From a virus: a stretch of DNA of 64,000 nucleotides. Under the pieces are notes generated by a model. The model was not told the DNA's origin, made no database searches, and saw nothing but the letters and a program-made list of their open reading frames with translations. A program made the position numbers and the translations under genes. The stretch lies in the IMG/VR virus record IMGVR_UViG_3300021356_000002; one strand, given 5' to 3'. Below, in pieces: positions 1 to 4,284 of the stretch (position 1 is its first letter; the number at the start of each line of letters is the position of its first letter).

Positions 1-201
1 CGATCCATAGATTAATGAGTTACTTTCAGAATACCCGTTGCGAAGACCCACACGTGTTTGTCTGTGATCGATATAAGATGCAACGGCGTATGAAGTAAAC
101 AGAGTTTTTTCTCTATTAGTCCACTCGTTAAAGTGTCTGAATTCAGCCTGTGCGGGTGATGACAGGCTGATCAGAAATGCTGTTAGAAGTATTTTAACCA
201 T
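1..201 (-). CDS. Exported hypothetical protein, truncated at the window edge
   Basis: Read manually: MVKILLTAFLISLSSPAQA|EFRHFNEW..., a Sec signal with an AQA cleavage site. Its ATG overlaps the end of 194..739 and the frame stays open to base 1. Confidence 0.7.
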   Translation of the reverse strand, partial: MVKILLTAFLISLSSPAQAEFRHFNEWTNREKTLFTSYAVASYIDHRQTRVGLRNGYSESNSLIYGS

Positions 202-739
202 CTGAGAGAGGATTGTCAAGTGCTTTTTGCAATGTGTCTCTCAAATCTTCATCAAGTTTGTCCATCTTATCATCGATGCGGTCTTCAAGGTTTCGCATCG
301 TGTCACGCACATCTTTCTCGGTCTCTCGGCTTAGATCAGAGACCTGACGCAAGCGAGTGTCAATTTCATCTTGAACGTTTTTCATTCGATTACTAGTTCG
401 ATCAGTGACAGTTTCGATTCGAATGATATCGTCTTTGAGACTATTCTTGATGTCGCGGGTGTACTCGATAGCATCGTCCAGCTTTCGTTCGATGGCTACG
501 TTTCGGGCTTCGACAGCCTCGAGGTCAAGCACCTCTAATTTCTCTGCCATTTCTTGAAACGCTTTGTACGTCTCAAAGCCACCGTAGAGAGAACCAAGCA
601 CAGCAGTCACGAGTGCAAATGCCGCACTGATCGTTGTCGGCGTCATGGTGATGCCAAACAACTTCATCTTAGTGTTCTTAAGATTCTCTACGCCTTCTTC
701 TATATTGTCTAGGGCATCTTCTAAATCTTTATCTGCCAT
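194..739 (-). CDS. Membrane-anchored coiled-coil protein
   Basis: One hydrophobic segment (ISAAFALVTAVLGSLYGGF) followed by a long charged heptad region. GAAGGA-type RBS. Confidence 0.75.
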   Translation of the reverse strand: MADKDLEDALDNIEEGVENLKNTKMKLFGITMTPTTISAAFALVTAVLGSLYGGFETYKAFQEMAEKLEVLDLEAVEARNVAIERKLDDAIEYTRDIKNSLKDDIIRIETVTDRTSNRMKNVQDEIDTRLRQVSDLSRETEKDVRDTMRNLEDRIDDKMDKLDEDLRDTLQKALDNPLSDG

Positions 740-854
740 TTAGAATTCCTTCTGCCACTTTTTTGCAAGTGGTTCTGATTATAATTTTGTTGTTCTCATC
801 ATATATCGTATATGTTTTCACACCAAGATCGTTACAACTTACGGTAGTCTTCAT
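729..854 (-). CDS. Small hypothetical protein (41 aa)
   Basis: Read manually: MKTTVSCNDLGVKTYTIYDENNKIIIRTTCKKVAEGILNGR. It fills the gap, overlaps both neighbours and has GGAG upstream. Confidence 0.5.
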   Translation of the reverse strand: MKTTVSCNDLGVKTYTIYDENNKIIIRTTCKKVAEGILNGR

Positions 855-1032
855 CTGTGATGTGCTCCATGTAGCAATTGTGATCTTGTGATCTAACCCA
901 ACTCAACTCTTGAATTATGCGGTTGTACCATTGCTTGTCGTATGCGTCTTTGGCTTTGTCCATGTCCGTCGAAAGTTGAGATATTCGAATATCAATATAC
1001 TCTCTGAAGTCATGTTTCTTTCCTCTTCTCAT
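832..1032 (-). CDS. Hypothetical protein
   Basis: 66-aa ORF with an ATGA overlap to the upstream gene. Confidence 0.65.
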   Translation of the reverse strand: MRRGKKHDFREYIDIRISQLSTDMDKAKDAYDKQWYNRIIQELSWVRSQDHNCYMEHITDEDYRKL

Positions 1033-1505
1033 CCTCGTGCACCTGCTATGATTGAAATGGTGCCGATGATAATTGTCAAGCTAACTACTGTGGCTACTGC
1101 AATCATACCGAAGTCTATCCAGAATGCTCTTTTTTCTGCGGCGGCTTGAGCGGCTTTAATTCGTGCGGCGCGAATAACTCTGCGTTCGCGCATCATGTCT
1201 TCGTAGAATTGCATTTGACCAGTGTAGATTAGGAACTCACGGAGTTCCTTCTCTAACTGCATCATCTTATGCTTTGCGGCAGTTACTTGAAGTGCCTGTG
1301 CTTCGACACTTTTGCCTGAGAATAGTTTACCCAACATCGATGGGTTGGATGCGGCTATGTTAGCCTCTGCGATTTGTTCCTTTGCGTCAAAAAATGATGA
1401 AAATGTTTGTGCTAGGTCTTGTACTTCACGACCTTGCTCAATCGCTCCTTTGATCATGTTGAAGGCAGAGCCAGCCATGCTGAGGGCGGCGGCGATTTCT
1501 ACCAT
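1029..1505 (-). CDS. Helical protein with a C-terminal transmembrane anchor
   Basis: C-terminal hydrophobic segment (FGMIAVATVVSLTIIIGTISIIAG). GGAG RBS. Confidence 0.75.
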   Translation of the reverse strand: MVEIAAALSMAGSAFNMIKGAIEQGREVQDLAQTFSSFFDAKEQIAEANIAASNPSMLGKLFSGKSVEAQALQVTAAKHKMMQLEKELREFLIYTGQMQFYEDMMRERRVIRAARIKAAQAAAEKRAFWIDFGMIAVATVVSLTIIIGTISIIAGARG

Positions 1506-1517
1506 TACTACACTCCA

Positions 1518-1967
1518 TTATTCGTTTTCGAATTTTAATGCCCTCAAATTTTCAATCTCTTGTCGGAGTCTCATAACTTCTAAACGCTTCTTTTCAAGTT
1601 CTAGCTGGTATAAAGTATTACAATTAAGGCGTTCTTTGGGGGCGCCAATTGGTATGGTTATTCTTCCATACACACCAACATCCCGAATGAACCGATCGTT
1701 ATTATATCGAAACGCACTACCAGGATCTACTTGCGCTAGGTTGTAAACTGGATCATCTTGATTCAGTATTCCAACTACGCCGAACTCGACGTTAGTTGAC
1801 GACCCTATCGCCATAGAGCATTCAATATCACCCGCTCTAATCCTGTCATTTTGAAAATTTGGTGATGTCTGTGGTATGGCTAGATTCAGCGATGAAGATT
1901 GACCCCATGCCGCACCTGACCAACATCCCACAATAAAGAACGTCACCAATAATAATAATCTTGTCAT
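1518..1967 (-). CDS. Exported protein with a Cys-bracketed amphipathic beta-hairpin and C-terminal coiled coil (putative oligomeric outer-membrane pore subunit)
   Basis: Signal peptide; two Cys flank alternating strands (NVEFGVVG...VGVYGRITIPIG); the C-terminal helix is charged. The function is inferred. Confidence 0.55.
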   Translation of the reverse strand: MTRLLLLVTFFIVGCWSGAAWGQSSSLNLAIPQTSPNFQNDRIRAGDIECSMAIGSSTNVEFGVVGILNQDDPVYNLAQVDPGSAFRYNNDRFIRDVGVYGRITIPIGAPKERLNCNTLYQLELEKKRLEVMRLRQEIENLRALKFENE

Positions 1968-2341
1968 TTTATTTTAGAACATATTTTAGACGATACCATC
2001 GTCAAACTGGTACCACTGCCTATTAATTTAGATTCAGAACAAATATACACTGCTCGCGTTTTATCTTTCTCGCGTATATGTATGTTCACCTTCTTTCGCT
2101 GTAAATGCTTCAACCTCACTATTTTCGATTCAGTGGCAAATGGAATTGCATTCCATTCGCGATCAAATACGCTAAACTCATAATACTCTACATCTGACCT
2201 CGCATTGAATAACACCATCTCCGTTGTCAGTATGCCCGGCACTGCATAGAAGGGCTTGAGACTTGGGTATGTAGGCGTTAGCTGGTGGGCACTCGCGTAC
2301 CCACCTAGCGTCATTAGTAAAGCACAAAGTATTAAACGCAC
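1964..2341 (-). CDS. Exported Ig-like protein resembling a single-domain fimbrial (PapD-N-like) chaperone
   Basis: Signal peptide ending ASA|HQLTPTYP, a 'LFNARSDVEYYEFSVFD' strand, an all-beta pattern and two C-terminal Cys. Confidence 0.5.
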   Translation of the reverse strand: MRLILCALLMTLGGYASAHQLTPTYPSLKPFYAVPGILTTEMVLFNARSDVEYYEFSVFDREWNAIPFATESKIVRLKHLQRKKVNIHIREKDKTRAVYICSESKLIGSGTSLTMVSSKICSKIK

Positions 2342-2347
2342 GTTTAT

Positions 2348-2845
2348 TTATATGGCAATGCACTCCGCACTTACAACAGTTCTGTAAGTTCCTGCGGGAA
2401 ATGCTTTGTCATAGCCATAGTCTGCTTCAGATGCAACTTTGAACCAAGTGCTACCTGCGATTGACAGATCAACCTCGGTTACGTTGTTGTACTCAATCTT
2501 GTCGGTGTCATATGCAGACATGCCTGCGTCTGACACTTCCGCGACTGAAGTGCTACCAGTCCAAGTCACTACATCATTCAAAGAAGGACTTTCTGAAAAC
2601 GAATTTGGATGAGTGATTCTTGCTTTGTAGTAGTCAGCGATGATTACATCATAGCGCACAATTGGCTCAACACCGCCATCGGCTCCGTCTGTAGACAGAA
2701 TGTTTGGCGTTGGGTTACCGTAGATGCCCACAGTGTCAGTTGTCACGAGACACTTAGACTCCACAGTTCCAGTGATGTTCACATCTTCAGCGATTGCTAC
2801 AGATGAAAAAACGGCAAGTACTGCCGCACTGATTTGCTTGATCAT
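2348..2845 (-). CDS. Exported fimbrial-subunit (pilin)-like protein
   Basis: Signal peptide ending AIA, N-terminal 'VNITGTVESKC' (like the FimA GxVxFxGxVxxxxC) and C-terminal 'AGTYRTVVSAECIAI' (like the pilin G-x-Y/F final strand). About 146 aa mature. AAGGAG RBS. Confidence 0.6.
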   Translation of the reverse strand: MIKQISAAVLAVFSSVAIAEDVNITGTVESKCLVTTDTVGIYGNPTPNILSTDGADGGVEPIVRYDVIIADYYKARITHPNSFSESPSLNDVVTWTGSTSVAEVSDAGMSAYDTDKIEYNNVTEVDLSIAGSTWFKVASEADYGYDKAFPAGTYRTVVSAECIAI

Positions 2846-2872
2846 TGAATGATCTCCTTCTGCTTTACTTAT

Positions 2873-3745
2873 TTACTTATTCTCATACTGTTGATTCACC
2901 ATTTTCTCATGAAGTATCTGTTGGGCAAACTCATTCCGTTTGCTGTTCTTATTGTCTGGCAAAGTACCACCGTCCAGTACAATTGTCTCTTCGTATACCC
3001 CTCCGGGTATGTTCTCATAATAGGTCTGAGGCATAAACTGCATTGCCATCAGTTCTGCGTGTTTGGTTTGATCGAGAACCGACATCACCGTAGTGTTGAC
3101 TGCGCCGAGCAACTTCTCTAGGCGCTCATCGATCTTCTTTTTACTAGCTACTTTTTTACGATCACGATCTTCTTGATCTTCTTCGTCCATGACTGCTTTA
3201 CGATCCAACTCGTCCTGCACGAACGTGTCATCTAATGGATCGACAACTTCGGGAGTTTCTAAAGAAGCGACGAAGGGATCTTTGTAGCCAGGACACGAAG
3301 GGTTTGTTTGCGGATCGAAACAAGGGTCGTATTGATACGTGTAGATCACGGAGGGATCAGTGACTTTGCCTTCGCCCTCTACTTCGATAGAGCCAGGACC
3401 CCATCGACTGATCGGAATGCCACCTACTGATACTGCTTTGTTGATAGTGTTGCCAGGAATGCCAGACCAATCGTCTGTCTCACGAAAGATGTAACCCGGA
3501 CCTTGTGCATCTTCGTTCTGCACGTGCACCAACATATCGTCTTCGGGATTCTTTATTGTGGTGTACTGATAGATTACGTTACCCACAGTCAAGCCTGCCT
3601 GCTGAGGCAGAACATTGGTCATCACCCAACTGAGACCATTGTTCGCGGCGTTCTGAGTTACACCGTAAACAACTTCATTAGAGTAAGAGTAAGAGGGCAA
3701 GCAAGCCAACAAGCCCAGCACCGCCCAACATCGTCTTCGTATCAT
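2873..3745 (-). CDS. Exported two-domain protein (N-terminal beta domain, CxxPxxxPxCPGY linker, charged helical C-terminus)
   Basis: Signal-like N-terminus and a DPCFDPQTNPSCPGY motif. The start codon is uncertain. Confidence 0.7.
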   Translation of the reverse strand: MIRRRCWAVLGLLACLPSYSYSNEVVYGVTQNAANNGLSWVMTNVLPQQAGLTVGNVIYQYTTIKNPEDDMLVHVQNEDAQGPGYIFRETDDWSGIPGNTINKAVSVGGIPISRWGPGSIEVEGEGKVTDPSVIYTYQYDPCFDPQTNPSCPGYKDPFVASLETPEVVDPLDDTFVQDELDRKAVMDEEDQEDRDRKKVASKKKIDERLEKLLGAVNTTVMSVLDQTKHAELMAMQFMPQTYYENIPGGVYEETIVLDGGTLPDNKNSKRNEFAQQILHEKMVNQQYENK

Positions 3746-4238
3746 TCGTCATCCCTTCTTTATTCTCTTCACCCGGTTTTGACTCCGGGTTTACTTCCCA
3801 TGCCGCTTTCGCTTCAGGACCTATAAGACCGTCATAAGGACACGGTGTGCCCGCATTCATCATGGCGTCAAAAACACGTCGGTCTTGACACATAACAGAT
3901 ACGGCTGCAACTTTCATACCCATGTCGTACAAGGTCTTAGCATTTTTTAATCTTTCACAATTATCGTCCGTGATTTGTGTGCCTGTAGAGATACCCAAGA
4001 TTTGAGTCTGTACAGCACCCGCAACACCAAACGTACATAGATCAGAGTTTGAAGTATTTATGGTAGGCGAGATCGCACTAGCAGGTGGTGACTTAAGTGT
4101 TGTCTCAGTTTTTCCCTCCGTTATTACCGTACTCGTTGTTACTGCTTCAGTTCGAATCACGTCATCTACTGGATCCTCTTGTGCAAAAATACTTGCAGAA
4201 AAAGTCAGTAAAAGACTAAAGAAAATTCCATAACGCAT
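3678..4238 (-). CDS. Exported Cys-rich protein with a C-terminal membrane anchor
   Basis: Signal peptide, four Cys (LCTFGV...NCERLK...MCQD...TPCPY) and a hydrophobic tail (GGAGLVGLLALLLLL). Confidence 0.8.
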   Translation of the reverse strand: MRYGIFFSLLLTFSASIFAQEDPVDDVIRTEAVTTSTVITEGKTETTLKSPPASAISPTINTSNSDLCTFGVAGAVQTQILGISTGTQITDDNCERLKNAKTLYDMGMKVAAVSVMCQDRRVFDAMMNAGTPCPYDGLIGPEAKAAWEVNPESKPGEENKEGMTNDTKTMLGGAGLVGLLALLLLL

Positions 4239-4284
4239 ATAAATATACTCCCGAAAATAATAATATATTACGAGAGTATTTATA
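4238..4284 (-). promoter_or_regulatory. T4-type late promoter TATAAATA (4277-4284) inside an RBS-sequestering hairpin
   Basis: Minus strand reads TATAAATACTCTCG-N17-CGGGAGTATATTTATATG, an inverted repeat covering the GGGAG RBS. Confidence 0.7.

Follow-up and report, generated by a model that had tools for sequence, protein, structure and literature searches.

A late cassette of exported proteins, composed of two mobile modules, in an uncultured marine T4-like phage

The window analysed here is a stretch of 64,000 nt from the virus record IMGVR_UViG_3300021356_000002, and at its beginning, within 4284-1 on the minus strand, it carries a cassette of ten genes, here called P1 to P10. Two mobile modules make up this cassette, module A (P1, P2 and P9, sometimes with P6) and module B (P3, P4 and P5), and as a whole it matches no described system; a full-text literature search found no description of it. 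Tentatively, we read it as a phage-specific late envelope cassette, the products of which may form a short envelope-bound assembly with a role in masking or exclusion. The two-module structure, a long repeat-bearing family to which P2 belongs, the exposure of an apparent match to pilins as a signal-peptide artefact, and the finding of cultured Vibrio phages that carry module B on the side of a tail-fibre gene are new.

The ten genes, all on the minus strand, as are the cassette coordinates given below, are packed from 4238 to the window edge at position 1, with intergenic spacings of -68 to +27 nt. A perfect copy of the T4-type late-promoter motif, TATAAATA, lies at 4277-4284, 39 nt 5' of the P1 start. 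The window holds 12 copies of this motif against 1.8 expected, a six- to seven-fold excess, mostly before structural genes, and the motif stands 36-46 nt 5' of P1 in 13 of 33 distinct relatives (background, 0.009). An inverted repeat, AAATACTCTCG ... CGGGAGTATATTT, which spans 4241-4284 and covers the P1 ribosome-binding site, has the copy upstream of P1 as its 5' arm. A second perfect copy, at 2345-2352, overlaps the stop codon of P3 and lies 10-12 nt 5' of the P4 start; it is kept in 4 of 32 relatives and the P4 start is too near, and this copy is probably not a working promoter.

The predicted features of the products point to the cell envelope. Signal-peptide-like N-termini with small residues at positions -3 and -1 are recognizable in P1, P2, P3, P4, P5 and P10 and are kept in the homologues, and membrane anchors are predicted at the C-terminus of P1 (residues 169-186), at the C-terminus of P6 (127-157) and in P9 (34-55). 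The mature region of P1 contains four Cys residues and those of P2, P3, P4 and P5 contain two each, even counts that are as expected for periplasmic disulfides. No conserved lipobox was found in any member of the cassette, and because the Cys residues in the signal regions of P5 and P2 are not conserved across homologues, these two proteins are not lipoproteins. Public gene calls for the same phage (L067) have P2 begin at a TTG within the gene (279 aa) and P4 at an ATG within the gene (116 aa); these shortened starts cut away the signal peptides, so the export of both proteins would go unnoticed in automated annotation. Scans of all ten proteins against Pfam and NCBIfam gave no meaningful match, only coiled-coil noise for P9, and comparison with PHROG returned families of unknown function only. 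An earlier note on this DNA had described a late operon of nine tightly coupled genes for exported proteins. The motif upstream of P1, the six signal-peptide-like N-termini and the conserved anchors bear out its late and exported character, and the tight coupling stands as well, whereas the number of genes is ten.

Conservation of the cassette is extensive. A scan of IMG/VR with P3 yielded 61 loci, nearly all of which keep the order P1-P2-P3-P4-P5-(variable)-P9 at identities of 33-87% (tblastn), with P6, P7, P8 and P10 present in subsets of these relatives only. Neighbourhood conservation in IMG/VR had been proposed by the earlier note as a check, and the core order is indeed kept in about 60 contigs. 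This bears on the simplest alternative, namely that these are unrelated secreted "moron" genes that merely happen to lie together and have no joint function. The lack of family annotations would fit such a collection, as would the coming and going of the accessory genes P6-P8 and P10. However, across those contigs the six core genes stay in the same order even where identity falls to about 33%, both sub-modules move as blocks into unrelated phage families, and the genes overlap by 4 to 68 nt. We regard this alternative, already disfavoured, as very improbable.

The host genome of the cassette is that of an uncultured marine T4-like myovirus. PHROG profiles identify a T4-like portal protein, major capsid protein, scaffold, tail sheath, DNA polymerase and tail-fibre-type proteins in the window, all on the minus strand, and the nearest cultured capsid proteins belong to Phage C48C1 (67%) and to the Methylophilales phages Melnitz (62%), both Kyanoviridae. 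Searches of C48C1 and Melnitz found neither P1 nor P5 in either, and the cassette is therefore accessory. DNA searches with the cassette returned a short P1 match in pelagiphages only among phages, and nothing among plasmids.

The two modules are separable. Module A occurs by itself in the Pelagibacter podophage HTVC115P, where profile searches detect P1, P9 and the C-terminal half of P2, and in the myophage Mosig, where they detect P1 and genes weakly resembling P9. When 185,579 species genomes were scanned with P1, 30 loci came up, all of them on contigs of metagenome-assembled genomes (MAGs) or single-amplified genomes (SAGs) assigned to very different taxa, archaea included; all of these "bacterial" P1 loci are phage DNA binned into MAGs and SAGs and not bacterial genes. 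Half of the 30 loci hold the full cassette, and the others hold P1, one long P2-type gene and P9, sometimes with P6. The MAG labels affected include Melainabacteria, Opitutales, Aquiluna, Bacteroides, Bifidobacterium and Methanobacteriota. One match lies in the single-cell genome AG-910-K03 of an uncultured alphaproteobacterium and may link a module-A phage to its host.

Module B, for its part, is found in cultured Vibrio phages. P5 matches 183 Vibrio phage records by tblastn, and the P3-like and P4-like proteins of phage pVp-1 match 179 records each. These records span at least three lineages, namely T5-like phages of 111-128 kb, phages of 82-84 kb, and Queuovirinae of about 60 kb. In the T5-like pVp-1, genes 077, 078 and 079 are P3-, P4- and P5-like, respectively, each with a signal peptide, and the jumbo Vibrio phage 2.275.O has P3-, P4- and P5-like genes in a different order. 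Distant metagenomic relatives of P4 again lie between a P3-like and a P5-like gene. No P1 was found in the Vibrio phages that carry module B. The picture of the cassette as one system, as the earlier note had it, thus gives way to that of two units, each of which occurs in other phages without its partner.

In three unrelated lineages of Vibrio siphophages, the trio comes immediately after a gene for a phrog_10818 protein of 770-861 aa that has no signal peptide, and the three copies share 25-31% mutual identity. In pVp-1, the phrog_10818 protein is preceded by a tail-fibre-assembly-like gene and by a large phrog_10818-related protein, gp075, with a collagen-like motif. The phrog_10818 neighbour, the gene of which adjoins a tail-fibre-assembly-like gene or lies among the structural genes, is probably a tail-fibre protein. 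In vB_VhaS-tm, the trio region is followed by head-tail connector genes. The large proteins beside the Vibrio trio were also considered as ushers, and were set aside as fibre-like and devoid of a signal peptide.

P4 (2341-1964, 125 aa) is a product of module B. Following its signal peptide, it is modelled from 25 sequences as a single PapD-like or MSP-like immunoglobulin (Ig) domain with a predicted local distance difference test score (pLDDT) of 90. A Foldseek search of the PDB with this model is headed by DraB (E = 4.3e-5), followed by FaeE, SafB, PapD, Caf1M, CfaA and FimC, with query-normalized TM-scores (TMq) of 0.56-0.63, and MSP domains also appear in the list. VIA-align, a search independent of Foldseek, gives SafB (Z 10.3, root-mean-square deviation 3.1, 103 residues aligned), FimC (10.2), CfaA (9.8) and PapD (9.0), along with MSP domains (9.7) and one Ig domain of a glycosidase (10.4). 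Cys101 and Cys121 bracket a flexible loop ahead of the last strand. At the level of sequence, P4 has no Pfam match at E<=1, its hhalign probability against seven Escherichia coli chaperone N-domains is 1%, and a profile search of PDB sequences found no match. An exhaustive profile search of 1.84 billion representatives places 173 representatives at 50% identity in the P4 family, and no two-domain chaperone is found among them; they are fragments or single-domain proteins of up to about 180 aa, except for one repeat protein of 2258 aa. P4 is, on its model, a PapD-like/MSP-type domain as regards fold, which is not proof of homology. Where the earlier note saw a chaperone resembling PapD-N, the Foldseek and VIA-align results uphold the fold, and the sequence link and the second domain are missing. 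Mature P4 starts with His in nearly all relatives (AH-x-x-T/S-P...), possibly for a metal-binding role or an N-terminal contact, and this residue is replaced in the versions from Vibrio siphophages.

P3 (2845-2348, 165 aa) was taken by the earlier note for a fimbrial subunit. It has a signal peptide and an N-terminal strand motif, after which the model (pLDDT 86.7) predicts a closed-looking beta-sandwich with one helix. The motif, hydrophobic-x-G-x-V-x-x-x-C, is conserved, with G26, V28 and C32 invariant, and invariant Cys32 and Cys162 presumably form a disulfide. Residues 21-30, which hold G26 and V28, are unstructured in the monomer model (pLDDT 61), and the remainder makes up the full sandwich. 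Relative to the Cys, the motif is shifted by one residue with respect to FimA. P3 has no Pfam match at E<=1, to fimbrial families or otherwise, and a profile search of PDB sequences was empty. When P3 was compared by hhalign with 15 fimbrial subunits of E. coli, the value was 82.6% as long as the signal peptides were included and 7.2% once they had been removed, and the higher value is a signal-peptide artefact. The best structural matches are sandwiches of the MSCRAMM N3, integrin and CBM2 types (Z 6-7.7), and the 50 matches with the highest Z include no chaperone-usher pilin; Foldseek against the PDB gives only weak rows for CfaB and for the pilin domain of PapG (TMq 0.38-0.40, E>1e-3). The rows for CBM2 and chitin-binding domains, at Z 6-7, fall inside the stated noise range of the tool, and glycan binding by P3 is not claimed. 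More than 2,060 clusters at 90% identity belong to the P3 family, all of them unnamed, and tblastn of P3 against phages gave no match. What likens P3 to a pilin is its N-terminal motif, its size and its gene position. The motif that the earlier note had pointed out is thus confirmed as conserved and left unmodelled in the monomer, whereas identity as a chaperone-usher pilin finds no backing in Pfam, in the profile score without signal peptides or in the generic sandwich fold.

P5 (1967-1518, 149 aa) belongs to phrog_37374 and has a signal peptide, Gly-rich amphipathic beta-strands between the invariant Cys50 and Cys116, and a C-terminal amphipathic helix. A strand at residues 97-107 alternates with period 2, positions 97, 99, 103, 105 and 107 being hydrophobic throughout the family. 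The Cys-bracketed amphipathic hairpin noted earlier is therefore well founded, as the invariant Cys pair, the period-2 strand and the C-terminal helix agree with it. P5 is poorly modelled in the ESM Atlas (pLDDT 0.61), where its good structural neighbours are confined to viral relatives of the protein itself; one ESM Atlas cluster of P5 has 1,228 members, 90% of them viral. A CsgG-like barrel, which the earlier note had suggested as the pore, is not supported: the mature protein has 127 aa against about 260 aa for the CsgG lipoprotein, there is no Pfam match and no conserved lipobox, P5 is not a lipoprotein, and the model is poor.

These observations on P3, P4 and P5 bear directly on the surface fibre proposed earlier, that is, a pilus without an usher in which P3 subunits would join by donor-strand exchange with P4 as their chaperone, an oligomer of P5 would serve as outer-membrane pore or anchor, and the infected cell would present the phage-encoded fibre. 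Such a fibre would account for a PapD-like P4 with FGL-type chaperones at the head of its structural list, for an N-terminal motif of P3 that is kept even in distant relatives and is left unmodelled in the monomer, for the strictly kept order P3-P4-P5, and for a P5 with a period-2 hydrophobic strand and a helix of the type that oligomerizes. However, P4 lacks the second chaperone domain, the P3 sandwich is modelled as complete at pLDDT >90 without any donated strand, the profile match of P3 to fimbrial subunits collapses and its best structural matches include no chaperone-usher pilin, as described above, and nothing supports a barrel in P5. In addition, no usher was found in the window, and the usher family PF00577, for which a control search of E. 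coli was positive, was found neither in four cassette-bearing T4-like contigs (among them contigs 85% and 91% complete) nor in the complete genome of pVp-1, and no open reading frame of usher size (about 800 aa) lies in the cassette or adjoins it. The absence of an usher that the earlier note had remarked upon thus extends to relatives of the window and to pVp-1, and the fibre itself is not supported; we consider it quite unlikely.

Module A consists of proteins of another kind. P1 (4238-3678, 186 aa; phrog_20531) is predicted to comprise a signal peptide, a Thr/Ser-rich stretch, a highly conserved periplasmic domain with four Cys residues, and a hydrophobic C-terminal tail anchor. Its homologues occur in pelagiphages, roseophages, N4-like Achromobacter phages and Ralstonia phage RSP15. 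The gene overlaps that of P2 (3745-2873, 290 aa), such that the same 68 nt at 3678-3745 encode, in two frames, the last 22 codons of P1 with its anchor and the first 22 codons of P2 with its signal peptide; an overlap of 68-74 nt is present in all five relatives checked by coordinates.

P2 starts with a weak signal peptide, the h-region of which is the weakest among the signal-peptide-like segments of the cassette, and continues with a beta-rich N-terminal domain, a single Cys-Cys "CPGY" unit, an acidic, Lys/Glu-rich helical linker, and a conserved C-terminal domain that ends in QY. P2 represents the short form in its family. The long members, of 460-880 aa, have a signal peptide, a variable head and 7-14 tandem units of about 22 aa (C...NPLY...CPGY) with two Cys residues each, followed by a long linker rich in Ser, Thr and Pro, a helix rich in Lys and Glu, and the conserved C-terminal domain with its final QY; examples on MAG-binned phage contigs are L101:6348-8450, L111:6519-8657 and L108:766-3195. 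Pfam gives no match for the long forms. Some of their heads contain the motif WDDSY..VPL.F.FPFYGR, which we take to be reminiscent of NIDO domains, although Pfam finds nothing there. TspB-like neighbours of P2 in the ESM Atlas (0.77-0.78) are below the chance level of the tool itself and were not used.

P9 (739-194, 181 aa) is predicted to be a bitopic inner-membrane protein, in which a short, acidic N-terminus in the cytoplasm is joined by a single transmembrane helix (residues 34-55) to a highly charged periplasmic coiled coil.

As for the accessory genes, P6 (1505-1029, 158 aa) encodes a cytoplasmic helical protein with a C-terminal membrane anchor and is present in some relatives only, including loci with module A alone, where it lies beside P9. 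P7 (1032-832, 66 aa) is small and soluble, lacks a signal peptide and is found in few relatives, and P8 (854-729, 41 aa), also without a signal peptide, is found in a subset of relatives. P10 (219-1) is cut by the window edge and has a full length of 126 aa on L067:10539-10919 of the same phage; it is a small protein of a subset of relatives, has a signal peptide and ends in ...GVSWQVAF. It is the only cassette member with an alternating hydrophobic pattern and a terminal Phe, an ending that is typical of outer-membrane beta-barrel proteins.

The virion proteins of tailed phages are assembled in the cytoplasm, and the late exported proteins known from phages are mostly lysis factors. One alternative is that the cassette is a lysis accessory, an envelope-spanning assembly that helps or times destruction of the cell, either by regulating the holin, as T4 RI does with T, or by weakening the outer membrane or its links to the wall alongside the spanins. 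Consistent with this are the late promoter motif, the coiled coils in P2, P5 and P9, the predicted topology of P9, which is that of an i-spanin or a class III holin (N-terminus inside, one transmembrane helix, large periplasmic domain), and the position of the pVp-1 trio just upstream of holin and endolysin genes. However, canonical spanin pairs lie elsewhere: a phrog_739 i-spanin is present in four of five related contigs, an overlapping gene for a lipoprotein with a lipobox follows it in the two contigs inspected, several kb from the cassette, and the annotated spanins of pVp-1 are apart from the trio. No spanin homologue was found in the window or 10 kb beyond it. Furthermore, the hhalign probability of P9 against three phrog_739 i-spanins is 0.4-11%, with no signal to a T-type holin either, no cassette member is a lipoprotein, and the genes that come after the trio in two other lineages of Vibrio phages are head-tail connector or HNH genes and not lysis genes. 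Overall, a part in lysis is doubtful, although it comes next in our ranking after the envelope-bound masking or exclusion assembly, towards which we lean only by a small margin.

On the contacts, location and role of the products within such an assembly, we infer the following. The cassette proteins would be exported by the Sec pathway and then oxidized in the periplasm. Module A would provide a periplasmic scaffold anchored in the inner membrane, with P1 as a tail-anchored four-Cys protein, P9 as a bitopic coiled coil, and P2 as a soluble modular arm, a long one composed of the variable head, Cys repeats, linker and a conserved C-terminal domain for docking. Module B would provide a set of subunit, half-chaperone and small oligomerizer (P3, P4 and P5, respectively). 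The Ig domain of P4 may bind P3 by beta-strand complementation, using either the free N-terminal strand of P3 or an exposed sheet edge, and P5 may oligomerize by its C-terminal helix, such that its amphipathic Gly-rich hairpins face the outer membrane or the cell wall. Combined with the P2 and P9 coiled coils, this would give a short envelope-bound assembly and not a long, usher-secreted pilus; the former is favoured because there is no pore and because P3 looks complete. The assembly might occupy or mask an envelope component late in infection and thereby spare progeny or superinfecting phages from infected cells and debris. We lean towards masking or exclusion because the trio lies behind a probable tail-fibre gene in three Vibrio lineages and because the head of P2 is variable. 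A more specific scheme is that lytic phages of several families carry an usher-independent donor-strand assembly, in which P4 hands P3 to P5 and a short polymer or cap is built in the envelope of the dying cell, docked on P1-P2-P9 or, in Vibrio, standing alone; this we hold to be unlikely.

The cassette would add a further class to the late envelope functions of phages. It is met with very frequently among aquatic phages, consists entirely of proteins that lack a family, and shares its parts among T4-like, T5-like, podo- and jumbo phages. If masking, lysis timing or a fibre proves true, the release and spread of marine phage progeny would be affected. In addition, about 180 genomes of cultured Vibrio phages contain the P3-P4-P5 trio, which makes the question accessible to bench work.

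In comparison with known systems, module B exhibits similarities to chaperone-usher systems, both of the FGL type (Caf1M-Caf1, SafB-SafA and DraB) and FimC-FimA, but there are also clear differences. The modelled fold of P4 is that of chaperone domain 1, the gene beside it encodes a beta-sandwich protein of some 146 aa, in which an alternating strand at the N-terminus ends in Cys, and both P3 and P4 are predicted to be periplasmic and have paired Cys residues. The Cys pair of P4 flanks the loop before its last strand, a place at which FGL chaperones have a disulfide. Unlike these systems, however, the cassette has no usher, no second chaperone domain and no sequence relationship to them; the fold of P3 is not specifically pilin-like, with its Cys residues at the first and last strands and not at A-B; and the cassette is late and comes from lytic phages. 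With two-component spanins (lambda Rz/Rz1 and T4 PseT.3/PseT.2), it has in common late expression, overlapping genes, and the combination of the P9 coiled coil with small exported partners. It differs from them in that an outer-membrane lipoprotein is missing, the profile of P9 shows no similarity to those of i-spanins, and related phages hold an ordinary spanin pair elsewhere.

Receptor-blocking or exclusion genes are known beside tail-fibre genes, such as llp of T5, next to the receptor-binding protein gene, cor of T1 and phi80, and lom of lambda. Llp, Cor and Lom are exported and have no virion role; they are single lipoproteins or outer-membrane proteins and are mostly early or expressed from prophages. 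Several points weigh against a masking or exclusion assembly as we propose it. Unlike the Llp/Cor type, the cassette is late and comprises three to six proteins without a lipobox, and in the window and its T4-like relatives it is not beside tail-fibre genes; masking is suggested only by gene position in the Vibrio siphophages. In pVp-1, and there only, holin and endolysin genes are close by, with the trio about 0.6 kb away, which fits a lysis role equally. The Z of about 10 for P4 grades into other Ig-like sandwiches (Z 7-10), and searches for the P3 fold by Foldseek against the PDB, VIA-wide, VIA re-ranking and BFVD gave generic sandwiches and no specific relative. What the cassette does have in common with the Llp/Cor type, besides being made of exported proteins, is that, in three lineages of Vibrio siphophages, the trio adjoins a probable tail-fibre gene.

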